A stretch of DNA of 39,139 nucleotides from DRR723986_23114; one strand, 5' to 3'; shown: positions 1 to 23,611, numbered from the stretch's first letter. Notes: generated from the sequence alone by a model not told the origin. Program-made: numbers and translations.

Positions 1-59
1 GAGTGGCTAGGCAGAGGTCTGCAAAACCTTCTACAGCGGTTCGAATCCGCTCTCGACCT
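1..59 (+). tRNA. tRNA-Cys (GCA), 5'-truncated by the window edge
   Basis: Anticodon arm GAGGT-CTGCAAA-ACCTT (GCA at 21-23); T-arm AGCGG-TTCGAAT-CCGCT; 3' acceptor strand CTCGACC plus U discriminator; CCA not encoded. Confidence 0.95.
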
Positions 60-63
60 CAAC

Positions 64-94
64 AAAAAGCATCTGCCGCGGCGGATGCTTTTTT
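64..94 (+). terminator. Intrinsic terminator after tRNA-Cys
   Basis: AAAAAGCATCTGCC-GC-GGCGGATGCTTTTTT hairpin with T-tract. Confidence 0.85.
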
Positions 95-208
95 ATTTTA
101 AGTCATCTGTATTTTTAAGATGGCTTTACCTTAAGTGGGTTAAATATATTTTCCGCATTGCATTTCCAGTGGACATTCATTAGTTTAAATTTCAAACTAC
201 TGATAATC

Positions 209-679
209 ATGCCACAAGACATTACCCTACATGTCAACGGGAAAACCAAAACCATATCCGCTGATCCCCAAGAACCCCTTTTATATATTCTGAGAGAGGA
301 ATTTGGGTTAAAGGGCGCAAAATATGGCTGCGGTCTTTTGCAATGTGGCGCATGCACAGTCATTGCAGATGCTCTGGCAGAGACTACATGCGTGAGACCT
401 TGTGCCAGTTTTGAAAAGGTAGAAATCACTACGTTAGAAGGTTTGAGTAAAAATGGTGAGCTTCACCCAGTTCAAAAAGCTTTCATTGAAACCCAAGCTG
501 CACAATGCGGCTATTGCGTGAACGGGATGATCATGACCGCTGTAGCACTTCTGAAAGAAAATTCTTCTCCAACTGAGAATGAAATACGTGAGGCTTTGAA
601 TCCTGTTATCTGTCGCTGTGGCACCCATTCGCGATTTATCAAGGCGGTGAAGATGGCATCAGAAAACATAAAGTCTTAA
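209..679 (+). CDS. (2Fe-2S)-binding small subunit of a xanthine-dehydrogenase-family molybdoenzyme (IorA/NicA/CoxS-like)
   Basis: Motifs GAKYGCGLLQCGACTV, QCGYC and CRCG; start moved from 158 to the ATG at 209 (MPQDITLHVNG). Confidence 0.92.
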   Translation: MPQDITLHVNGKTKTISADPQEPLLYILREEFGLKGAKYGCGLLQCGACTVIADALAETTCVRPCASFEKVEITTLEGLSKNGELHPVQKAFIETQAAQCGYCVNGMIMTAVALLKENSSPTENEIREALNPVICRCGTHSRFIKAVKMASENIKS

Positions 680-681
680 TT

Positions 682-2919
682 ATGGAAGGAGTTCAGCACT
701 ACAACTCGAGTCGCCGGTCTTTCCTTAAAAGCACTGGACACCTACTAATAGGTTTCAATCTTTTACCACTCACATTCTGCCAAACAAAAGGTTCTCCAAA
801 TGAAATACCTCCCTATTCTGGCATTCCTTTTCGCCCAACTATCGACAATAAATTAATTGATTCTTGGATTAGATTGGATGCAACAGGACACCTGACAGTA
901 CTTTCAGGTAAGCAGGAGTTAGGGCAGGGTATAAAAATCGCCTTAATCCAAATTGCAGCAGAAGAACTAGATATTAATCCGGATCGCTGCCATATTATCA
1001 ATTCAGATACTGGTCAAACTCCAAATGAAGGATTCACCGCTGGTAGCAATTCCGTAGAAGGTAGCGGAAGCGCTATCCGCCAGGCTGCAGCTGAGGCAAA
1101 ACACCATCTATTAAAAATGGCTGCGGAAAAATGGAGTGTAAATCCGGAAAACCTAAGCGTAGAAGATGGGGTTATTATAGCTAACTCTGGTGAGAAAGTG
1201 AGTTATTGGGAGCTTTTGCAAGGCAAATTTATAGAGGAGAGAATCTCTGGAGATATTAAACCAAAAAAACCAGAAAACTACAAATATGTAGGACAACCCT
1301 TGCATAGGGATGATATCCGGAAATTGGTAACTGGCGAATCTCATTTTGTCCACGATCTACAAATGCCAGGGATGGTCCATGCACGAGTGCTTCATCCACC
1401 TTCCTACGACGCCACCTTAGAATCCATAGACCTTACCCAAGTTGAAGCTTTGCCTGGAGTACTCAAAGTAATCAGAAACGGGAGCTTTTTAGCAGTAGTC
1501 ACCGAAAGGGAATACCAGGCAGTAAAAGCAAGGGAAATGCTAAAAGAACTAACAGTCTGGAAAAAGTCTCCAATCGCAATACTTCCAAGGCAATTAATGG
1601 ATAACGTCCTAACTACTTCAGGAAAACCAGAGGAAGTAGAAATCTCACCAGGAATTGCAGAGCTTATTTCAAATTCAGCCATACATCATCAAGCGGATTA
1701 TTTCCGCCCCTATCACATGCATGCCTCCATTGGACCATCGTGTGCAGTCGCACTTTGGGAACCAAACCTCCTGACCGTTTGGTCAGCTACTCAAGGAGTA
1801 TATCCCGTCAGAGATTCAATAGCAGATCTGCTTTCTTTGGATAAAGAAAAAGTCCGATGTATAGGTGTTCCTGGTTCCGGGTGCTACGGACACAATGGCG
1901 CAGATGATGTGTCGGGAGAAGTTGCTATCATAGCCAAAGAATTTCCAGGTAAACATGTACGACTTCAATGGATGCGTGAAGACGAACACAAGTGGGAACC
2001 ATACGGTACAACTATGGCTTTTCGTCTATCTGCAGGATTAGATTCAGCTGGAAAGCTCCTAGGCTGGGACAGCATAGTCTGGTCAGATTCTCATAGTACA
2101 CGACCAAATGGAAGTGGCGGGAGTTTCATTGTGGCAAGAACTTTGGAACCGCCAGTTGAATTTAGAAAGGGCGGTTGGTCAGGTGGATCCCATCGAAATG
2201 GAGTTCCAGAATACAATTTCGAAGCCAAGCAACTCTACCTATTCAACTACGAGGGTCCACTCAGAACCTCATCACTTAGAGGCTTGGGTGCCTATGCAAA
2301 TACCTTTGCCATGGAAGCGTTTATGGATGAGCTGATCCACAAAGCTGGAAAAGACCCGATTGATTTTCGGATAAAAAACTTGGAGGATCCACGTGCCAGA
2401 GCCGTTTTGGAAGTGCTCGCTCAAAAGACCAATTGGAAATACAGATCTAAAGTCGCTAAAAACGGATTCGGAGTTGCCTATGCTAGGTATAAAAATGCCA
2501 CCTCCTATTTTGCTGTATTAGCAGAAGTGGAAATCGATAAGGCAGCCAAAAACTACAAACTCAAAAAACTCACTGGCGTAATCGACTCTGGGTTAACGAT
2601 AAACCCGGACGGGTTAAAAAACCAGACAGAAGGCGGAATGATCCAATCTGCCAGCTGGACCATGATGGAAGAAGTGCAGTTTGACAAAGATGGAATCACG
2701 AGTGTAGATTGGAATACTTATCCTATTCTACGGATGAAGGATATACCGGAAGTAGAAGTCCATATTATAGACCGACCAGAAGAAAAGCCGATGGGAGCAG
2801 GTGAAGCAGCTATGGGACCTGTCGCGGCGGCAATTTCAAATGCTGTGTTTGATGCAACCGGAAGTAGAATTAGGAATCTGCCGATTAAGGCTGATAAGAT
2901 AGATTGGACAAAAGTTTAG
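682..2919 (+). CDS. Molybdopterin-binding large subunit, xanthine dehydrogenase family (IorB/NicB-like), Tat-exported
   Basis: SRRSFLK twin-arginine motif; ELGQG, QIAAEEL, GCYGHNGADD, LRGLG, QTEGG and GAGE motifs. Confidence 0.9.
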   Translation: MEGVQHYNSSRRSFLKSTGHLLIGFNLLPLTFCQTKGSPNEIPPYSGIPFRPTIDNKLIDSWIRLDATGHLTVLSGKQELGQGIKIALIQIAAEELDINPDRCHIINSDTGQTPNEGFTAGSNSVEGSGSAIRQAAAEAKHHLLKMAAEKWSVNPENLSVEDGVIIANSGEKVSYWELLQGKFIEERISGDIKPKKPENYKYVGQPLHRDDIRKLVTGESHFVHDLQMPGMVHARVLHPPSYDATLESIDLTQVEALPGVLKVIRNGSFLAVVTEREYQAVKAREMLKELTVWKKSPIAILPRQLMDNVLTTSGKPEEVEISPGIAELISNSAIHHQADYFRPYHMHASIGPSCAVALWEPNLLTVWSATQGVYPVRDSIADLLSLDKEKVRCIGVPGSGCYGHNGADDVSGEVAIIAKEFPGKHVRLQWMREDEHKWEPYGTTMAFRLSAGLDSAGKLLGWDSIVWSDSHSTRPNGSGGSFIVARTLEPPVEFRKGGWSGGSHRNGVPEYNFEAKQLYLFNYEGPLRTSSLRGLGAYANTFAMEAFMDELIHKAGKDPIDFRIKNLEDPRARAVLEVLAQKTNWKYRSKVAKNGFGVAYARYKNATSYFAVLAEVEIDKAAKNYKLKKLTGVIDSGLTINPDGLKNQTEGGMIQSASWTMMEEVQFDKDGITSVDWNTYPILRMKDIPEVEVHIIDRPEEKPMGAGEAAMGPVAAAISNAVFDATGSRIRNLPIKADKIDWTKV

Positions 2920-2946
2920 CGTGTTGTTGCAAGATTTGAATAAAAA

Positions 2947-3543
2947 TCAAAAATTATACCCAACTCCAAATTGAACTCCAATCTCCTGTAAGATTTGCTT
3001 GTAGTTACCTCCCTTTTCAAATGGAATCACGTTGTGCCTTTTGTAGTTGGGAAAAATAGAAAAGGAAAACTGCTCAGTATCCAACTTTGCACCAATACCG
3101 CCCAAATAGCCAACTCCACTTTGATCTGAGAAATTATTCCCTTCGGAAAGCTGGAAATCTACAACAGGACCAGCTGCAGCATAAAAAATCTTCCCAAGTG
3201 AATATTCTGCATAAATAGGAATTGAAAGCAGCTTGAAATCAGAATTATGAGAATAGCCATACAAGCAATTTATACATGGAGGGAAATTAGGATTGTATTT
3301 TATTTGCGCAAATGAATAATTTAAACTTCCACTCAGCGAGAATTTCTCACTTATACTTTTCGAAAGCAAAACACCAACCTCCATTAAGTTTTCAATATCC
3401 ACAGAGCTAGCTCCATCCAAATTTTCGTTCCAGTTGGCCATAGCTCCCGAAGCTCCAAAATAGCCTTTCACTTCTAACCCAGATTGTGCAGTGACCGAAA
3501 TACTAATTAAAAGGATAAAGAATAGTAAAAGTGCATTTTTCAT
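2947..3543 (-). CDS. Outer-membrane beta-barrel protein (PorT-like/OMP beta-barrel)
   Basis: Signal peptide, alternating beta-strand pattern, LSIPIYAEY motif, C-terminal GVGYNF. Confidence 0.75.
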   Translation of the reverse strand: MKNALLLFFILLISISVTAQSGLEVKGYFGASGAMANWNENLDGASSVDIENLMEVGVLLSKSISEKFSLSGSLNYSFAQIKYNPNFPPCINCLYGYSHNSDFKLLSIPIYAEYSLGKIFYAAAGPVVDFQLSEGNNFSDQSGVGYLGGIGAKLDTEQFSFSIFPNYKRHNVIPFEKGGNYKQILQEIGVQFGVGYNF

Positions 3544-3578
3544 AAGATCGAAATTAATGATAAAAATAGTTTAGCCAA

Positions 3579-3605
3579 GACGAAAGAAGTAGCACGTGTG
3601 CTACA
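3579..3605 (-). promoter_or_regulatory. Putative ECF-sigma promoter for the OMP gene, overlapped by a palindrome
   Basis: Minus strand TGTAGC-N17-CGTC; palindrome GTAGCAC-GT-GTGCTAC at 3589-3604. Confidence 0.45.
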
Positions 3606-3673
3606 AATGAATGTCACGAAGGATCTTTTCTATAAGCAAGTCCAGCTTCTGGAGAAGCAGGATAACATATAAA

Positions 3674-3716
3674 ACTGCGCTCTTTGCGCTTTCTCTGTGA
3701 TCTTTGCGGTTCAAAA
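3674..3716. repeat. Short degenerate repeat tract (CTTTGCG-type units)
   Basis: ACTGCG-CT-CTTTGCG-CTTT-CTCTGTG-AT-CTTTGCG-GTTCAAA. Confidence 0.55.
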
Positions 3717-3724
3717 TTTTTCAC

Positions 3725-3757
3725 AAAAAAAAACGCCGACTTTTCAGCCGGCGTTTT
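3725..3757 (-). terminator. rpsA intrinsic terminator
   Basis: Minus strand AAAACGCCGGC-TGAAAA-GTCGGCG-TTTTTTTTT. Confidence 0.9.
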
Positions 3758-3771
3758 CCATATATTAAGTA

Positions 3772-3804
3772 AGTCTTGATTCTAATGTCTAGAATCTAAC
3801 GTCT
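3772..3804 (-). repeat. Heptamer tandem array immediately after the rpsA stop
   Basis: Minus strand AGACGTT AGATTCT AGACATT AGAATCA AGAC. Confidence 0.7.
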
Positions 3805-5573
3805 TACTTTTTACCTTCCATTTGCTCTTTCAATTGAGTCAAAGCGTCCAAGTCACCAAGAGTTGACTTCTCAGCTGGAGCAGAAGTAGTAGAAGTAGAA
3901 CCTGAATCAGATTTCTTCTTAGCTTCTTTCTTAGCTGGCTTCGCTTCTTCTCTGAACATTGCTGTGTGAGAAAGAACGATTCTCTTATCATCTTTAGAGA
4001 ATTCAGTTACTTTGAAATCCAAAGACTCACCAACCTCTACTTGAGATCCATCTTCTTTTTCCAAGTTCTTCACTGTAGCGAATCCTTCAAGACCGTAAGG
4101 CAATTCAAGAACTGCACCTTTGTCATTCTTAGAAACTACAGTACACTTGTGCTCAGATCCGATAGGGAATACACCTTCGAAAGTATCCCATGGATTCTCT
4201 TCCAATTGCTTATGACCAAGAGCCAATCTTCTGTTGTCTACGTCAAGCTCAAGAACAGCTACTGCTAGCTCGTCTCCTACTTTCACAAACTCAGATGGAT
4301 GCTTGATTTTCTTAGTCCAAGAAAGGTCAGATACGTGAACCAAACCGTCGATACCTTCTTCCAACTCAAGGAATAGACCGAAGTTAGTCAAGTTTCTTAC
4401 CACACCTGTGTGCTTAGAACCTACAGCGTACTTAGTACCCATGTCGTTCTTAGTCCATGGATCTTCAGTCAATTGCTTGATACCAAGAGACATTTTTCTG
4501 TCGTCTTTGTCAAGAGTCAATACTACAGCTTCGATTTCGTCACCAACTTTCACAAAGTCAGCAGGATTTCTCAAATGCTGAGACCAGCTCATTTCAGACA
4601 CGTGGATCAAACCTTCAACACCTGGAGCAAGCTCAAGGAACGCACCGTAGTCAGCTACGTTTACGATCTTACCTTTAACTCTAGATCCGATTTCAAGGCT
4701 AGACGCCAAAGAATCCCAAGGATGAGCAGTAAGCTGCTTCATACCCAAAGAAATTCTCTTCTTATCATCATCAAAGTCAAGAACCACAATCTGAACTTTC
4801 TGATCAAGTTGCAATACTTCTTCTGGATGATTGATACGTCCCCAAGAGATATCTGTAATGTGAAGAAGACCATCTACACCACCTAGATCGATGAATACAC
4901 CGAAGTTGGTCATGTTCTTGATCACACCTTCCAATACTTGACCTTTCTCAAGGTTGTTCAAGATCTCAGCTTTTTGCTTCTCAAGATCTTTCTCGATCAA
5001 CACTTTGTGAGATACTACTACGTTATCATTTGCGTGGTTGATTTTCACCACTTTTACTTCCATTTTCTTACCTACATAGATATCGAAATCTCTGATAGGC
5101 TTCACGTCGATCTGAGAACCTGGCAAGAATGCTTCTACACCGTAGATATCTACGATCAAACCACCTTTAGTTCTTCTTTTCACCAAACCTTCGATCACGT
5201 TGTCATGCTCAAGCGCATCTTCGATGTCTTGCCATGCACGTACGATCTTAGCTTTCTTACGGGAAAGGATCAACTGTCCAAGTGCGTTTTCCTGCTCTTC
5301 GATGAATACCTCTACTGTATCACCTGGCTTGATGCCATCAAGGTCACGGAATTCGGAAAGAGGAACTAATCCATCAGATTTGAAACCGATGTTGATGATT
5401 ACATCCTTATCATTTACACCTACTACAGTGCCTTTGATAACTTCTTTCTCAGTGATCTCGCCCAATGTATTCTCATACATTGCAGCCATTTGCTCACGCT
5501 CTGCTTTGGAATAACCTTCTCCAAAACCTTTGGTTTCGAAGTTGTCCCAGTTAAAATCTTCTTGTTTTGACAT
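3804..5573 (-). CDS. rpsA: 30S ribosomal protein S1
   Basis: Six S1 repeats (FKSDG, AFLPGSQID, FGVFIDLGGVDGLLHITDISW, GLIHVSEMSW, GLVHVSDLSW); C-terminal STLGDLDAL. Confidence 0.98.
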   Translation of the reverse strand: MSKQEDFNWDNFETKGFGEGYSKAEREQMAAMYENTLGEITEKEVIKGTVVGVNDKDVIINIGFKSDGLVPLSEFRDLDGIKPGDTVEVFIEEQENALGQLILSRKKAKIVRAWQDIEDALEHDNVIEGLVKRRTKGGLIVDIYGVEAFLPGSQIDVKPIRDFDIYVGKKMEVKVVKINHANDNVVVSHKVLIEKDLEKQKAEILNNLEKGQVLEGVIKNMTNFGVFIDLGGVDGLLHITDISWGRINHPEEVLQLDQKVQIVVLDFDDDKKRISLGMKQLTAHPWDSLASSLEIGSRVKGKIVNVADYGAFLELAPGVEGLIHVSEMSWSQHLRNPADFVKVGDEIEAVVLTLDKDDRKMSLGIKQLTEDPWTKNDMGTKYAVGSKHTGVVRNLTNFGLFLELEEGIDGLVHVSDLSWTKKIKHPSEFVKVGDELAVAVLELDVDNRRLALGHKQLEENPWDTFEGVFPIGSEHKCTVVSKNDKGAVLELPYGLEGFATVKNLEKEDGSQVEVGESLDFKVTEFSKDDKRIVLSHTAMFREEAKPAKKEAKKKSDSGSTSTTSAPAEKSTLGDLDALTQLKEQMEGKK

Positions 5574-5683
5574 AATGTACTAACCCTGAATAGCAATAGT
5601 CCCCGGGTCAAAGAACTATCGTTTTTAGTTGTAAATCAATGCGTTAAGCAAACCCAACACACTCCATCCACTCGAACGGACTG

Positions 5684-5691
5684 CAAAGGTA
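5684..5691 (-). promoter_or_regulatory. Bacteroidota housekeeping -7 promoter element for rpsA
   Basis: Minus strand TACCTTTG matches TAnnTTTG, about 110 nt upstream of the ATG. Confidence 0.75.
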
Positions 5692-5878
5692 TGGAATTAT
5701 TGATAAAGGAGGTGTTTCAAGTAAAAAAAAGCATAGAATTGAAGGTGAAGCCCAAATAAGCTTTAGCTAGCAAGTTTTCTTATAACCATTTTTTTTTGAA
5801 TTGATTCAATGGCTCAAAGGAATAGGATTACAATAGCCACTACCCGCTGCAAATACCTATTTCCGAAAAATCCCGCCT

Positions 5879-14324: not shown

Positions 14325-15344
14325 TTATAACAAATCAAATCCTTTTCGCATCGCGAAACTTTCCCTGATCCAGCTTGCGAGTCTTGCACTTTGAGCAAAA
14401 TCCAAGGTCTGCTGTCCATCTGAGTAAGCTTTCTCAGGAACTTCATGAGATTCATAGATTATTCCGTCAGCTCCGGACATCACTCCCGCCAATGCCATCT
14501 GAGGCACATAGGCACGAATCCCTATTCCGTGCGAAGGATCTACAATAACTGGTAAGTGTGATTTAGCTTTCAAAATCGGAATAGCATTTAGGTCCAATGT
14601 ATTTCTGGAAGCTCTTTCATAGGTTCTGATCCCTCTTTCACATAAAATCAGTTTCTCATTTCCTCCTGAAAACACATACTCAGCGGATTGCAAAAGCTCT
14701 TCGATTGTACCTGAGATACCACGCTTGATCATCACTGCCTTATCTACTTTCCCAAGTTCATCGAGAAGGTTGAAATTCTGGGAATTTCTAGCTCCCACCT
14801 GATACACATCCACGTAAGGATACATTTCTTCTATCTGGGAAGTTTGCATCACTTCGGTGACGATCTTAATCCCAGATTCACTGGCGATTTGATGCCAAAG
14901 TTTTAGTCCTTCCAAACCCAAACCACGGAAAGCATAAGGGCTACTTCTAGGTTTGAAGACCCCGCCACGCATCATCTTAATGTCATTTTCCACGCAGTGG
15001 GCCACTACGGCACGGATTTGCTCTTCCGTCTCGATGGAGCAAGGCCCGGTGATCACAGCCATTTCCCCTTCTTTGATGAATACACCATCACCCAAATCAA
15101 CAGAAGTTGGCTTAGCTTTCCACTTTTTGGACACCAACTTATACTCGTCAGAGACGATATGAATATCGATGATTCCGTCCATCTGGCCGATTTTACGGAT
15201 ATCAAATTCCTTTTTACCAATACCGATTAGGTAGTCTCCTAATTGTGTTTTGACTTCTGTGGTCTTATAGCCGATTCCATTGACCTCATTGATCAATTTA
15301 TCTTTTTGGCTATCGGAAATATCGGGTTGAAGTTGAATAATCAT
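14325..15344 (-). CDS. aroF: DAHP synthase, type I-beta with N-terminal regulatory domain
   Basis: GPCSIE, KPRSSPY, QVGARN, KRG, LCERGIR, DPSH and SDG motifs. Confidence 0.93.
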   Translation of the reverse strand: MIIQLQPDISDSQKDKLINEVNGIGYKTTEVKTQLGDYLIGIGKKEFDIRKIGQMDGIIDIHIVSDEYKLVSKKWKAKPTSVDLGDGVFIKEGEMAVITGPCSIETEEQIRAVVAHCVENDIKMMRGGVFKPRSSPYAFRGLGLEGLKLWHQIASESGIKIVTEVMQTSQIEEMYPYVDVYQVGARNSQNFNLLDELGKVDKAVMIKRGISGTIEELLQSAEYVFSGGNEKLILCERGIRTYERASRNTLDLNAIPILKAKSHLPVIVDPSHGIGIRAYVPQMALAGVMSGADGIIYESHEVPEKAYSDGQQTLDFAQSARLASWIRESFAMRKGFDLL

Positions 15345-15349
15345 TATTA

Positions 15350-15380
15350 AGTACGATTTATGAAATACGATTTACGAGGA
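15350..15380. repeat. TTTACGA-type heptamer array directly before the aroF start
   Basis: Plus strand AGTACGA TTTATGA AATACGA TTTACGA GGA. Confidence 0.8.
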
Positions 15381-15880: not shown

Positions 15881-16660
15881 TCAATTCACCACTGATTGAA
15901 TGTAATTCTGGATATCTTCACTCAGATTTTTCGAATCTTTTATTGTCTTGATGAAAGCCGAACCTATAATGGCTCCATTACTATAATTGGAAGCGGTGGT
16001 AAATGTTTCCGAATCTGAAATCCCAAATCCAATTAATCTAGGATTCTTAAGATTCATAGCTTTTACCCGCTCGAAATATGCAATCTGCTCCTCGGTGATT
16101 CCTGCCTTCGCACCTGTGATGCTATGTGAAGAAACCATGTAGATAAAGCCAGAGGTATTTTCGTCTATCTCTCTAATTCGCTTTTCGCTGGTTTGAGGTG
16201 AAATAAGAAAGGTATTGACCAAGCCATACTGCTCAAACAACTGCTTATAATCATCCAAATATTGCTGCATAGGTAGGTCAGGCAAAATCAAACCATCCAC
16301 TCCGACTTCTTTGCACTTTTGGCAGAAAGCCTCCATTCCGTACTGCATAATTGGATTGAGATAGCCCATCATCACTACTGGAATATGGATTTTGGCACGA
16401 AAACCTCTCAGTTGCTCAAAGATCTTTTTCAATGAAATCCCGTTTTCCAGCGCAATCATATTGCTATCCTGAATAGTTGGTCCATCCGCCACTGGGTCTG
16501 AATACGGCACGCCAATCTCAATAATATCAGCTCCTCCAGCCTGGGCAGCCTCCATGATCGGCATCGTATCTTCCAATGCCGGAAAACCTGCAGTGAAGTA
16601 GATTGATAATACTCTGGAGTCCTTTTCTTTAAATAATTTATGTATTCGGTTCATTTGCAT
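15881..16660 (-). CDS. trpA: Tryptophan synthase alpha subunit (start at 16660 or 16654)
   Basis: IEIGVPYSDPVADGPTIQ, MGYLNP, PDLP, IGFGIS and IIGSA. Confidence 0.97.
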   Translation of the reverse strand: MQMNRIHKLFKEKDSRVLSIYFTAGFPALEDTMPIMEAAQAGGADIIEIGVPYSDPVADGPTIQDSNMIALENGISLKKIFEQLRGFRAKIHIPVVMMGYLNPIMQYGMEAFCQKCKEVGVDGLILPDLPMQQYLDDYKQLFEQYGLVNTFLISPQTSEKRIREIDENTSGFIYMVSSHSITGAKAGITEEQIAYFERVKAMNLKNPRLIGFGISDSETFTTASNYSNGAIIGSAFIKTIKDSKNLSEDIQNYIQSVVN

Positions 16661-16981
16661 TTACGATTTAGGATATTGGATTTACGAGCGCCTCTTTAAA
16701 ATTGAGACTTTTTCCCATTCCAGCATCAACTATTTTAGTTCAACCCTTTCAGGGTTGGTATTCAATTTTAAAATTTCTTTCTCATGGGTTGCCCCCATGG
16801 CTAATCTTGGTTAACCCCTTTTAAGGTTAATAGTGAAAGGTTCGTCTCAGGTTTCGGTCACTTCATTATTCAGCCTTCAACATTCTTCATTCACTATTAT
16901 TTTGTTTAGGAAAAGCATGAATTATACGATGACGATTGAAGTTCAAAATGTCCTCGTAAATCCGATATCATAAATCCCAAA
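16660..16981. repeat. trpB-trpA spacer bounded by inverted heptamer arrays
   Basis: 16660-16688 TTTACGA TTTAGGA TATTGGA TTTACGA G versus the reverse complement of 16953-16981, TTTGGGA TTTATGA TATCGGA TTTACGA G (25/29). Confidence 0.85.
16741..16830. repeat. REP-like palindrome cluster
   Basis: CAACCCT-TTC-AGGGTTG, CATGGG-TTGCC-CCCATG and TTAACC-N8-GGTTAA. Confidence 0.65.
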
Positions 16982-18160
16982 TCAATACTGCCCCCATTTA
17001 ATATAAGTGTCCAGATCCTTATCGCCTCTTCCTGACAAGTTGATCACAATCACATCATCTTTGGAATATTCAATCAAGTTTAATGCATGTATCGCATGAG
17101 CAGATTCGATTGCTGGGATTATCCCTTCCAATCTACTTAACTCAATTCCTGCAGCCATTGCATCTTTATCCTCCACTGCTACGAATTCACCTCTTCCTAC
17201 ATCAAATAAATGAGCATGAACAGGACCGATTCCAGGATAATCCAATCCAGCAGAAATAGAATGTGGCTCTACAACTTGCCCGTCCTCTGTCTGCATCAAA
17301 ATCGTCTTTGATCCATGCAAAACACCTGGAGTTCCAAGAACAGTAGTTGCGGCTGATTTCCCAGACAAAACGCCCAGACCAGCAGCTTCCGAAGCAACTA
17401 AGCGAACTTGCGGGGTATTATAATAGTGATAAAAAGCACCAGCAGCATTTGATCCTCCACCCACACAGGCAATCACGATATCCGGATTTTCTGTTCCTTC
17501 TTTCTCTTTGAGCTGCCATTTGATTTCCTCCGAAATCACGGATTGAAATCTGGCCACCATCTCTGGATAAGGGTGCGGTCCTACTACCGATCCAATGATG
17601 TAATGTGTATCCACAGGGTTATTGATCCAAGCTCGCATAGCTTCGTTTGTAGCATCTTTGAGTGTTTTCGAACCCGAAGTAGCAGGCACAACTGTAGCTC
17701 CCAAAATCTTCATCCGCTCCACGTTTGGATGCTGACGTGCGATATCTATTTCGCCCATGTATATGGTACACTCCATCCCCATCAGCGCACAAACTGTTGC
17801 TGTTGCCACACCATGTTGACCCGCTCCGGTTTCTGCGATGATTCGCTTTTTCCCAAGCTTCTTCGCCAAGATGATCTGACCTATGGTATTGTTGACTTTA
17901 TGAGCTCCGGTATGACAAAGATCTTCTCGCTTTAAATATACTTTTGCCCCGTACTTTTCTGAAAGTCTAGAAGCAAAATACAAAGGAGTAGGCCTGCCTA
18001 CATAGTCTTTCAGCAATCCTCTGAATTCATCCTGAAACTCCTGCGAAGCCATGATTGACTCGTAGTTTTCTTTCAGCTCTTCCACGTTTGGGTGCAACAT
18101 TTCGGGGATATAAGCTCCTCCAAATTTGCCGTAAAAACCCTTTTCATCTACTTTGATCAT
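16982..18160 (-). CDS. trpB: Tryptophan synthase beta subunit
   Basis: [12 protein letters not shown] (PLP lysine), [22 protein letters not shown] and NLSGRGDKD; start moved to ATG 18160. Confidence 0.98.
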
Positions 18161-18833: not shown

Positions 18834-18926
18834 AGGATTATAATTTGATTTTTATAGGCCATATGGAATCTCGCATGTGTGATAATTACCGCGGTTTGAG
18901 ATTCTTTGAGTCATGCTCGATTTCAT
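18830..18926. repeat. ~90-bp dispersed element, copy 1 (trpC-trpF spacer)
   Basis: Shares GATTATAATTTG, GCCATATGGAATCTCGCA and GCTCGATTTCAT with 23340-23434. Confidence 0.85.
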
Positions 18927-21384: not shown

Positions 21385-21424
21385 ATTCAGGTTGAAAGGT
21401 GGCAAAGTCGAAAAGTGGTAAAGT
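21385..21424. repeat. Octamer array, downstream arm of the four-helix-bundle cassette
   Basis: Transcript ACTTTACC ACTTTTCG ACTTTGCC ACCTTTCA ACCTGAAT. Confidence 0.85.
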
Positions 21425-21463
21425 CCACTTATCCCCAACCCTTGCAATCCATTCCGTTTTACT

Positions 21464-21832
21464 CTATTCTTTCTTATTTTTCAAATAGGTCATTAAAGCT
21501 TTAATCTGCCTTGACAAGACAATTAACTCTTCTTTTAATTTTAAATATGTCTCTTCCGAAACTCTGTTTACTTTAACTAATAGTGCTAATTGACTTCTTA
21601 ATTCACCTGCTGATCCCTTCGCATAGCCTAGAAATCTAATGAACTGAAGCTTATTGTTGTATTCAAATCCTTCGGCTATATTATTCGAAATCGATATTGC
21701 ACACCCAATTAATTGATCTCTAGATTTGTAGTCGCTTTTGAGAGGTACTTGATCAGAAAGAGAATAGATCTCTACTCCAATCTCAATTGCTTTTTGCTAA
21801 ATGTGTAATTCTTCAAAACTGTTAGCCTTCAT
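21464..21832 (-). pseudogene. Four-helix-bundle protein (23S rRNA IVP/TIGR02436-like) with an in-frame TAG at codon 12
   Basis: Hand translation: MKANSFEELHI*QKAIEIGVEIYSL...DQLIGCAISISNNIAEGFE...FIRFLGYAKGSAGELRSQL...LMTYLKNKKE*. The TAG at 21797-21799 replaces the W of the family's 'F..L..WQKA' motif. Confidence 0.9.
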
Positions 21833-21871
21833 ATTCAAAGATTTATATCAAATATTTTCAAGAATACTCAT

Positions 21872-21911
21872 TATACCACTTTACAACCTTCCTACTTTAA
21901 AACCTTCCAAC
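21872..21911. repeat. Octamer array, upstream arm of the four-helix-bundle cassette
   Basis: Transcript directly after the trpE TGA: GTTGGAAG GTTTTAAA GTAGGAAG GTTGTAAA GTGGTATA. Confidence 0.85.
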
Positions 21912-23324
21912 TCAAATATTCTCCGCCGCCCGCAATGCCACTCGCAGCGCTTCCAGTTTATTTGCGACTTCTTGCAATTCAGATGGGATAGTTGATTTGG
22001 CGACTACACCCGCACCTGCTTGGAATCTGAGTTGATTGTTTTCAGAAACAAATGATCTGATCAAAATCGCGTGATTGAAGTCACCATTGAACCCTAAGTA
22101 GCCAATCGCTCCACCATAGAACGTTCTAGAAACATTCTCCAACTCGTCTATCAGCTCCATAGCTCTATATTTAGGAGCTCCGGAAAGTGTACCTGCAGGA
22201 AAGGTATCAGCTACCAACTGAAGTGGATTTGTTCCTTCTGGTAATTCTCCCGTCACTTTAGATACTAAGTGAATCACATGTGAATAGTATTGAATCTCTT
22301 TAAAGACATCCACGGTAACTTTCTCTGAGGATCTGCTGAGGTCATTTCTCGCCAAATCTACAAGCATCACATGTTCTGAATTCTCTTTTGGATCATCATA
22401 AAGTTTGCGGGCCAAAACTGCATCTTCCTGATCATTACCCGTTCTGCGGAAAGTGCCTGCAATTGGATATATGGTTGCTTTTTTGTCTTTCACAACGATT
22501 TGTGCCTCAGGCGAGCTACCGAAAACCTTAAAGGAACCGTAATCAAAATAAAATAAATAAGGTGAAGGATTGACAGATCTAAGGGCACGATATACATTGA
22601 ATTCGTCACCTTTGAAGGCAGTGGAAAACCTTCTGGAAAGTACAATCTGGAACACATCACCTTTGAAGCAATGCTCCCGTCCTTGATTCAGAATTTTGAG
22701 AAACTCCTCATCGGTGTAGTTTGAGCTTTCTTCTCCTACTCTCTTAAACGAGTAGCTTGGAATATTTTTATTTGAAAGCAACCTTTCGATCTCATCCGTT
22801 AATTCCGGATTCTCCGCACCTGCCACTCTATGCTCTAATAAGTGAAGCTCATTTTTATAATGATCTACCACGATGATATTCTGATAAACTGAATATTGCA
22901 TCATCGGCACCTCAGATGCCTTTGTATTCTGCAGATTGATATCTTCGAAATAGGCTACTGAATCGTATTGGATGTATCCAAAAAGTCCATTCGAGCTAAA
23001 TTTAAAATTATCCTGACCCGTATCAAACTTGTTCCCAAAAGCTCTAAGGCTCTCCATCAGTTTCTGATCCGAACTCACTTTATAGGATACAGAATGCCCC
23101 AATGGTAAGGTTTCTTTCACTTCTCCAGCATTGAAACTGAACGTTGCCAAAGGGTTAAAACAGATATAAGAATAACTATTTTCCTGACCATGATAATCTG
23201 AACTCTCGAGCAGAATAGGATTTGCAAAACGATCCCGAATCTGCAGATAAATACTCACAGGGGTGATTGTGTCCGCTAGGCGCTTTCTGTAAGTAGTTAA
23301 AATAGGTAGTTTAATATGAGTCAT
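21912..23324 (-). CDS. trpE: Anthranilate synthase component I
   Basis: LLES, GDVFQIVLS, NPSPY, SSPE, PIAGT, EHVMLVDLARND, PAGTLSGAPK and QAGAGVV. Confidence 0.97.
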   Translation of the reverse strand: MTHIKLPILTTYRKRLADTITPVSIYLQIRDRFANPILLESSDYHGQENSYSYICFNPLATFSFNAGEVKETLPLGHSVSYKVSSDQKLMESLRAFGNKFDTGQDNFKFSSNGLFGYIQYDSVAYFEDINLQNTKASEVPMMQYSVYQNIIVVDHYKNELHLLEHRVAGAENPELTDEIERLLSNKNIPSYSFKRVGEESSNYTDEEFLKILNQGREHCFKGDVFQIVLSRRFSTAFKGDEFNVYRALRSVNPSPYLFYFDYGSFKVFGSSPEAQIVVKDKKATIYPIAGTFRRTGNDQEDAVLARKLYDDPKENSEHVMLVDLARNDLSRSSEKVTVDVFKEIQYYSHVIHLVSKVTGELPEGTNPLQLVADTFPAGTLSGAPKYRAMELIDELENVSRTFYGGAIGYLGFNGDFNHAILIRSFVSENNQLRFQAGAGVVAKSTIPSELQEVANKLEALRVALRAAENI

Positions 23325-23435: not shown

Positions 23436-23469
23436 AAAAAAGGCTTACCGGAAATCCAGTAAGCCTTTT
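23436..23469 (-). terminator. trp attenuator terminator
   Basis: Minus strand AAAAGGCTTACTGGA-TT-TCCGGTAAGCC-TTTTTT; upstream AAAGCC (near 23502-23507) can pair with GGCTT as an antiterminator. Confidence 0.88.
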
Positions 23470-23507
23470 ATATAATGTCGTAACGCAAAATTAAATGCAG
23501 GGGCTTT

Positions 23508-23570
23508 CTAAACTTCCTTTTGGAAAGAGTAAGAATGCCACCACCAATATTTGTTTGCGATTGTTTTCAT
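23508..23570 (-). CDS. trpL: trp operon leader peptide MKTIANKYWWWHSYSFQKEV
   Basis: 20-codon ORF with TGG TGG TGG, upstream of a terminator and trpE. Confidence 0.9.
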   Translation of the reverse strand: MKTIANKYWWWHSYSFQKEV

Positions 23571-23581
23571 AAGAATGGGAG

Positions 23582-23611
23582 CAAATTTAGAAAGGGATTG
23601 TTAAGGACAAA
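23582..23611 (-). promoter_or_regulatory. Bacteroidota promoter of the trp operon
   Basis: Minus strand TTTG-N18-TAAATTTG. Confidence 0.75.

Follow-up and report, generated by a model that had tools for sequence, protein, structure and literature searches.

Why should a small gene of the PF05635 family (TIGR02436, IVP) stand between trpE and trpG in a tryptophan operon, enclosed by inverted arrays of an eight-nucleotide word, and what are these arrays for? The question is raised by DRR723986_23114, a stretch of 39,139 nucleotides (nt) that was analysed over its whole length and is called here the window. PF05635 is a very large family, related to the Avd protein of diversity-generating retroelements (DGRs); it is said to have been first described in 1993, inside ribosomal RNA (rRNA) intervening sequences, and is to our knowledge still without an assigned function. 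An initial annotation, made from the window alone, took the gene and its arms for a small element without transposase which inserts at gene junctions of conserved operons, hides in an RNA stem and has repeat units specific to each insertion. Comparison with related genomes gave another picture. The arms are arrays of a conserved word that follows the protein subfamily, recurs at many gene-less sites and is more abundant where the cognate gene is present. We give an even chance to the reading that these arrays are sites recognised by a ring-forming PF05635 protein, in an arrangement similar to that of REP sequences and RAYT genes.

The cassette between trpE and trpG

The trpE|trpG gap of the window is 551 nt long and contains the PF05635 gene and both arms. 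Its features, all on the minus strand and listed here in the direction of transcription, are the following:

21912-23324, minus strand: trpE, anthranilate synthase component I (open reading frame (ORF); Pfam Chorismate_bind, E 4.4e-77, and Anth_synt_I_N, E 8.1e-30)
21912-21914, minus strand: trpE stop codon, TGA
21878-21911, minus strand: 5' arm, octamers GTTGGAAG GTTTTAAA GTAGGAAG GTTGTAAA followed by GT, period 8
21833-21877, minus strand: leader of 45 nt, from the 5' arm to the start codon
21464-21832, minus strand: PF05635/TIGR02436 four-helix-bundle gene, type B, 122 codons and a stop, now a pseudogene
21830-21832, minus strand: start codon ATG of this gene
21797-21799, minus strand: in-frame TAG at codon 12, TGG (Trp) in relatives
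21464-21466, minus strand: stop codon of the gene
21391-21424, minus strand: 3' arm, complement of four octamers, ending 30 nt before the trpG start codon
20794-21360, minus strand: trpG, glutamine amidotransferase (ORF; Pfam GATase, E 1.7e-51)

The initial annotation had described the arms correctly: the first base of the 5' arm comes directly after the trpE stop, the arrays have a period of 8 nt, and our recount agreed with the one given. Each 34-nt arm can be read as two 16-nt units or as four 8-mers, and on the sense strand the 5' arm is purine-rich and the 3' arm pyrimidine-rich. The two are complementary at 26 of 34 positions (76%), and the eight mismatches consist of four sense-strand G-U pairs and four transversions, which brings the paired positions to 30 of 34. 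The inverted arms are no chance match. Local alignment of the flanks scored 28, against a mean of 16.3 (standard deviation 2.1, maximum 25) for 300 shuffles, none of which reached that score. The octamer pattern was found six times in the window for 0.75 expected, with five of the six matches within the two arms. Finally, the window arms outscored all 22 mismatched flank pairings made with 11 other cassettes.

The presence of an unannotated 122-codon gene for a four-helix bundle was confirmed by the profile searches, for which the protein was translated with tryptophan in place of the TAG at codon 12 (the frame runs from the ATG through eleven codons to the TAG, then through 110 open codons up to the stop). 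It matched PF05635 over profile positions 1-105 of 106 (E 1.5e-29, 102.8 bits versus a cut-off of 33.8) and TIGR02436 over the full profile (E 3.1e-28, 98.2 bits versus 24). PF05635 was the sole Pfam family matched by this protein, which has no IS200/IS605-like tyrosine transposase match. Its relatives by sequence in the PDB were 2GSC (E 3.8e-10) and 2RLD, each listed with five chains. When the window protein (...QLIGCAISISNNIAEG...) was compared by eye with the family signature GxxRxxxSxxxNxxE, as given in the accessible part of PMC3936711, the S, N and E were present, and a G stood where relatives (e.g. that of locus L188) have R. As a side observation, IG or a similar pair was seen in the trp-junction proteins of Algoriphagus and close genera; an RR before the S...N..E is kept in the relatives from Ohtaekwangia, Mucilaginibacter and Pedobacter.

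A word that follows the protein

For the comparisons, the genes were divided into two types: type A, represented by the gene of the nearest genome (G001), with ATTGnAAn arrays, and type B, the gene similar to that of the window, with GTTGnAAr arrays. The TTGnAA word common to both follows the protein subfamily across loci and phyla. At least two copies of TTGNAA upstream together with at least two copies of its complement downstream were present at 48 of the 76 usable subfamily loci, versus 2 of 39 other Algoriphagus IVP loci. The medians over the 76 loci were three copies upstream and two downstream, and 0 and 0 in the wrong orientation; these loci are not independent of each other, and they span at least five genomic contexts in records titled Bacteroidota, Chlorobiaceae and Ignavibacteriae. 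A check of repeat type against protein phylogeny had been proposed with the initial annotation; at the level of the subfamily, the two go together. The claim that repeat units are specific to each insertion fell, the octamer word being present at dozens of gene-less sites per genome and going with the subfamily.

The other IVP families of the genus follow the same design. PF05635 genes were found in 59 of the 61 Algoriphagus genomes surveyed (each at least 90% complete), at about 8-10 per genome (11 in G001, 10 in G062). The family search and flank inspection that had been suggested revealed inverted arrays around nearly all of the 41 loci examined, with a period of 7, or of 8 at the two trp-junction loci. 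The repeat unit is particular to each orthologous IVP family. When 12 distinct cassettes were compared, the arms of a cassette beat every mismatched pairing in eight, were borderline in two and failed in two. The arrangement has a fixed polarity: 36 of the 41 cassettes are co-oriented with both neighbour genes, 14 of 15 family representatives have a sense strand rich in purines in the 5' arm, and in 11 of 14 this arm starts at -4 to +6 nt from the upstream stop codon. These families are syntenic too; in one of them both flanks were homologous in 105 of 120 pairs.

Two peculiarities of these loci were recorded. PF05635 genes are frequently seen two by two on one strand, at a distance of 1.2-1.7 kb, which looks like a single host gene with a cassette on either side (examples are G069:C2 245263/246901, G081:C8 244238/245908 and G001:C1 747193/748533). 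At L008 (G001:C3:50413-50727) the gene is antisense to both neighbours and has GGTTGGTG-type arrays on both sides, in direct and not inverted orientation.

The arrays are by no means confined to the cassettes. Three successive ATTGnAAn units (at most two mismatches) were found 74 times in G001 versus 5 times for the reversed control, and 39-76 times in four relatives; GTTGnAAr arrays were also frequent, over a higher background. Inspection of 20 such G001 loci identified 17 A-type arrays of 3-7.5 units (mode 4), and none of the 20 was near any of the 11 PF05635 genes. When read on the pyrimidine strand, 10 of the 17 arrays precede an ORF of 70 amino acids or more, with no more than 44 nt up to its ATG (in nine cases no more than 12 nt); four of the 17 come after a stop codon. 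The genes led by arrays include three MacB-like permeases, a LeuD-like protein, a PurL N-terminal region, GH3 and PfkB. At several of the gene-less G001 loci, A-type and B-type arrays stand side by side, and their order is that of the nested cassettes described below. In addition, a small GC-rich hairpin (~TCCGCCACGGCGGA, with short flanks) was seen in or beside octamer arrays at three G001 loci (L139, L142 and L143) and at the junction L103 of G039; it looks like a second miniature insert, one that targets arrays.

Array abundance is higher where the cognate gene is present. The numbers of octamer-array matches in the 61 genomes, counted with at most one mismatch (reversed controls gave 0-2 per genome), were as follows:

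A carriers, 18 genomes: median 45.5
B carriers, 12 genomes: median 27.5
neither gene, 31 genomes: median 13

The difference between carriers and non-carriers was significant (Mann-Whitney p 1.4e-4), also after eight matches had been subtracted for the cassette's own arms (p 0.008). A second IVP family gave the same result: the median number of GTACnAn arrays was 22 in 17 carriers versus 5 in 42 non-carriers, two genomes with gene fragments only being left out (p 1e-6, or 9e-4 after subtraction of eight). The cross-comparisons, in which each array type was set against the gene of the other family, were null (p 0.78 and 0.22). As to the range of these counts, the GTACnAn arrays are hugely expanded in G004 (236 matches in a 2.6-Mb genome) and G041 (125), most other genomes having 0-30.

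Alleles at the junction and the rest of the window

The A/B gene is present in 30 of the 61 genomes, as type A in 18 and type B in 12, never both, and in all 30 it is at trpE|trpG. A first sample of 15 same-genus genomes contained 10 empty junctions (11-17 nt from the trpE stop to the trpG start), three of type A, one 61-nt scar where only a type-A 3' arm is left next to trpG (G014), and one type B inside the leftovers of type-A arms (G003); in a metagenome contig of a related organism the two flanks are joined with 72 nt between them. The comparison of filled and empty alleles asked for in the initial annotation thus turned up empty, A, B and scar junctions within one genus. Among species-representative genomes, 33 of 80 relatives lie between trpE and trpG, and two more do so on truncated contigs; beyond Algoriphagus they include other Cyclobacteriaceae genera and Ohtaekwangia/Chryseolinea-type records. 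The remaining 45 occupy other sites, among which a few contexts recur (13, 9 and 4 loci). The window copy is the B allele of an old resident cassette at trpE|trpG of Algoriphagus and other Cytophagales.

What the initial annotation had called a life-cycle series stands in part. Gain, decay and loss are all visible at this junction, in its empty, intact, nonsense and one-armed states, and in-frame stops or truncations affect 6 of the 18 A copies as well as the window's B copy. Recent mobility, the other part, finds no support in a gene that is at the same junction in 30 genomes out of 30: the gene-bearing cassette has no near-identical copies at several sites, unlike a transposon or a miniature inverted-repeat transposable element. 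The synteny of A/B and of the other IVP families, which had been named beforehand as the outcome that would speak against an element inserting at junctions, means that ongoing insertion is not supported.

The two alleles are scattered over the genus. On the trpG tree the A/B labels need 10 changes, versus a mean of 10.1 when shuffled, and at least seven of these are forced by well-supported branches. The flanks of the cassettes are mosaic, and in the A/B pairs G047/G035 and G003/G048 they are 91-99% identical up to the cassette edge. B cassettes are nested inside A arms in G003, G072 and G045, and in G044 and G061 the B arm has remnants of an A-type 3' arm behind it. Between the window and G003, the B cassette is no less diverged (75%) than the flanks (76%), which argues against a recent sweep. 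Taken together, A and B are an old dimorphism re-assorted by recombination. The intact copies have a ratio of non-synonymous to synonymous substitutions (dN/dS) of about 0.05-0.06, with dS near saturation. Some type-A cassettes, those of L101 (G035), L107 (G082) and L102 (G076), carry an extra insert of 100-160 nt between the 5' arm and the gene, with an inverted repeat of its own or a further array.

Homologous recombination appears to have brought the B copy into the window. Across 33 kb, the window is 97-98% identical to its nearest genome, G001, which has at trpE|trpG a type A gene, the protein of which is 54% identical to that of the window (arrays ATTGnAAn versus GTTGnAAr). Identity to G001 is 99-100% to either side of the junction and 87-95% over window positions 21905-22800. 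The junction itself differs from that of G062 at 4 of 551 positions and from that of G078 at 13, and the B protein is 99% identical to the intact copies of these two genomes. Since the first 400 nt of the cassette-side trpE and the first 100 nt of trpG are also closer to G062 than to G001, a stretch of some 1 kb resembling the sister lineage G062 lies within an otherwise G001-like sequence, which argues for arrival by homologous recombination rather than by transposition. At junction position 114 (window 21798), the window has A where G062 and G078 have G, which turns TGG into TAG; contigs of three DNA runs (X1, X4 and X5) that contain the same cassette have the TGG form. The nonsense change is very recent, the single G-to-A at 21798 being what broke the gene. 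Elsewhere, further dips in identity to G001 (80-94%, in a background of 99-100%) were noted at window positions 17400-18000, 22400-22600 and around 26800; such local dips point to frequent short recombination tracts in this species.

The other features of the window that bear on the arrays or on the operon are listed below:

23458-23593, minus strand: probable trp leader upstream of trpE, given for context only (Rfam Bacteroid-trp)
16659-16982, minus strand: gene-less hairpin filling the trpB|trpA junction, GATTTAC-type units
16659-16699 and 16942-16982, minus strand: arms of this hairpin, 41 nt, 78% complementary
15345-15374, minus strand: one-armed array, TCGTAAATCGTA-type, directly upstream of the DAHP-synthase gene
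14325-15344, minus strand: DAHP synthase gene (Pfam)
3804-5573, minus strand: ribosomal protein S1 gene, rpsA (Pfam)
3767-3803, minus strand: one-armed heptamer array directly after the rpsA stop, then a terminator-like hairpin

The trp genes are all on the minus strand, and trpE, trpG, trpD, trpB and trpA were confirmed by Pfam. The debris-filled trpB|trpA junction and the one-armed aroF and rpsA junctions of the initial annotation were recovered, as a gene-less hairpin and as solitary arrays. Array-armed gene-less inserts also fill trpB|trpA in G001, G014, G015 and G003, with units that differ in G003 and in the 3' arm of G014. The DAHP-synthase array is conserved in G003, G014 and G015, with both arms in the latter. 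The rpsA array is common to 14 of the 28 species examined, another array type being found in four; since no synteny of window genes with other IVP loci was detected beyond the trp locus, it is not tied to any known cassette. The Bacteroid-trp match scored 42 bits, under the gathering score of 49 (E 0.026), and an Rfam search of the arms and the other window spacers gave no match beyond this sub-threshold leader.

Two further observations concern the window at large. The trpC|trpF spacer is occupied, at 18834-18925, by an element of about 90 nt (…GAAATCGAGCAT…GCGAGATTCCAT.TG.CC…) without Rfam match, which is also present in G014; the spacer is almost nil in G003 and G015, and a similar sequence adjoins an octamer array at the unrelated G001 locus L142 (G001:C3, ~189.3 kb). 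Positions 1-5734 do not align to the 40 kb of G001 around the trp locus, and a rearrangement or insertion boundary may exist near 5735.

Readings of the arrays and known systems

How could a protein of this family use such arrays? According to the accessible part of PMC4990558, Xcc0516, a PDB relative of the window protein, is a homopentameric toroid. Setting this pentamer alongside the typical 4-5-unit arrays, we infer a ring protein on word arrays, in which each subunit would hold roughly one unit, probably of single-stranded nucleic acid. The gene would then sit between two arrays of its own sites, as a RAYT gene does between REP sequences, and the dispersed arrays would be maintained or spread by the protein, or used by it for regulation, possibly with an effect on translation of the downstream gene. 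The arms could also pair in the polycistronic RNA, looping the gene out as in rRNA intervening sequences; their complementarity, and their position directly at the trpE stop and the trpG leader, make this possible in the trp RNA. A wider version would make of PF05635 a family of sequence-specific ring binders of periodic 7-8-nt words, each joined to its own dispersed arrays in a REPIN-RAYT-like partnership on a fold other than that of a transposase, and acting, through the arrays at start-codon leaders and behind stop codons, on many transcripts in the manner of TRAP or of a ring-shaped RNA chaperone, with rRNA intervening sequences as a special case and A/B as a long-maintained polymorphism of two specificities; this generalisation is tentative, and we regard it as doubtful.

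Several observations weigh against recognition of the arrays by the protein. The genes downstream of array leaders have no functional theme, hence no sign of a coherent regulon. The tests linking carriage and abundance ignore phylogeny, and array-rich non-carriers exist, with up to 79 octamer matches in G033 and 47 GTAC matches in G035; G062 and G078, which carry B and not A, nevertheless have 47 and 40 A-type matches. By eye, the A/B proteins of Algoriphagus read IG at the conserved RR of the family. Something other than the protein, such as a role as leader element, could be what preserves the word. Finally, the arms are 85% identical in register (563/664) versus 73% (723/988) when shifted by one unit, in a register picked by the aligner; this difference is compatible with some register-specific pairing.

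Pairing is central to the reading put forward in the initial annotation, of a mobile, transposase-free mRNA intervening cassette with an arm stem that would be cut by RNase III, excising or insulating the insert and keeping the trpE stop near the trpG start. The analogy with rRNA intervening sequences on which it drew holds: in the accessible part of PMC4990558, the Coxiella element has terminal inverted repeats and, upstream of the S23p ORF, tandem heptamers (GACAGAT), with an RNase III cut at the first repeat and excision shown in vitro. Also in its favour, the arms abut the upstream stop codon (in the 11 of 14 representatives) and the downstream leader, most cassettes (36/41) are co-oriented with both neighbours, and at empty sites trpE and trpG are a mere 11-17 nt apart, so that coupling could matter. 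The minimum-energy fold of the whole insert does pair the two arms, each of which is by itself unstructured, and the B-arm duplex is worth about -40 kcal/mol. However, this fold is unexceptional (z -0.79, with 21 of 100 shuffles equally stable), the type A stems are weak (about -21 kcal/mol), and evidence of a selected stem was not obtained. Counted overall, the arm mismatches comprise 26 sense-strand G-U pairs, 32 A-C and 88 transversions, i.e. no G-U excess, and the 4-to-0 ratio of the window is therefore not general. When, separately for each type, 5' arms were paired with 3' arms taken from other species, the own arm had no advantage (-21.1 versus -20.4 kcal/mol for A, -40.7 versus -41.1 for B), and no lineage-specific compensation was seen. 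Many arrays stand without a partner arm, and no recent movement was detected (30/30 genes at one junction). Moreover, a stem needs neither periodicity nor a deeply conserved word, and sites for an oligomer would need both, which favours word arrays. What makes up the arms is a conserved word in arrays, rather than a stem co-evolving within each lineage, and we judge the RNase III cassette unlikely as the primary explanation; RNase III processing might be an additional layer on array recognition.

The two other alternatives leave pairing aside. If the arrays had nothing to do with the protein, being intergenic repeats of the host or neutral ones (e.g. leader or promoter-proximal elements, or simple sequence prone to slippage), and the gene just happened to lie in a repeat-rich spacer, there would be nothing odd in the dozens of gene-less arrays per genome, many of them directly before the start codons of unrelated genes, in the array-rich genomes without A/B gene, or in the rpsA and DAHP-synthase arrays conserved across species without it. 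Yet the word goes with the protein subfamily across loci and phyla (48/76 versus 2/39), it is inverted around a gene with fixed polarity, the unit differs from one IVP family to the next, abundance goes with the cognate gene rather than with that of the other family, and reversed-pattern controls are near zero; we hold this explanation to be improbable. It is also very unlikely, in our opinion, that the inverted arrays are recombination or homing sites, comparable to those of integron cassettes or homing elements, through which A is swapped for B at a fixed junction. The scatter of A and B on the trpG tree (10 changes versus 10.1 shuffled, at least seven forced), the near-identity of some flanks up to the cassette edge (91-99% in G047/G035 and G003/G048) and the nested cassettes and 3' arm remnants are what such exchange might leave behind, but no gene for a recombinase or nuclease belongs to the cassette, the window and G003 are no less diverged in their B cassettes than in the flanks (75% and 76%), and the A-array-then-B-array order recurs at gene-less loci, which means that nesting may be a standard two-tier build. 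With flanks that are mosaic throughout, ordinary homologous recombination on an old dimorphism suffices.

If binding of the word by the protein is true, it would explain both the protein family and one class of so far unexplained short tandem repeats at Bacteroidota gene junctions. The present data make testable statements out of the vague notion of a hairpin cassette: a cognate 7-8-nt word for each protein subfamily, dispersed genome-wide, with an abundance that follows the presence of the gene. The series available at one junction (empty, A, B, nested, nonsense, scars) is natural material for experiments. In the openly readable part of the literature, no general account was found of the gene-plus-array design, of dispersed cognate arrays or of allelic dimorphism. 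What the window adds is the genus-wide junction series, the A/B dimorphism, the negative stem tests, and the genome-wide gene-less arrays with their link to gene carriage.

Among the known systems close to the trp cassette are the intervening sequences of 23S rRNA (S23p in helix 45 of Coxiella burnetii; Leptospira), which share with it the PF05635 gene, the terminal inverted repeats and a decay-prone ORF; the Coxiella heptamers, placed between the outer stem and the start codon, resemble the tandem repeats of the trp cassette. The latter differs in that it lies in a protein-coding operon and not in rRNA helix 25 or 45, in its octamers, and in its arms, which belong to a repeat family dispersed genome-wide. 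IVP genes have also been described as wedged into cas operons, in the accessible part of PMC3936711. With Avd the likeness is one of fold and family, PF05635 resembling it by comparison of PDB 4DWL with 2GSC (accessible part of PMC10053308). An Avd-like role alongside a reverse transcriptase is unlikely here: a search for RVT_1 found none in G001 or G062 and three in G078, none of them near the cassette by coordinates, and template or variable repeats were not evident.

In Bacillus, the ring protein TRAP recognises triplets spaced at regular intervals, both in trp leaders and at the start of trpG. The likeness, a ring-forming family and periodic short repeats just upstream of trpG, is limited to the working principle, since the folds are unrelated, the array-led genes have no tryptophan theme and a trp leader of the leader-peptide type is probably present.

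The REP/REPIN-RAYT systems offer a parallel in organisation. RAYT is a gene for an IS200/IS605-type transposase, and REP repeats are palindromes of about 20-35 nt. Like RAYT, the gene of the trp cassette is single-copy and vertically inherited, and stands between inverted copies of a short repeat. In both cases this repeat also occurs, scattered and gene-less, between other genes; every gene family keeps a repeat of its own, the abundance of which goes with the presence of the gene. Unlike RAYT, the protein of the trp cassette is predicted to be a four-helix-bundle ring without known catalytic fold, and its repeats are tandem words of 7-8 nt.

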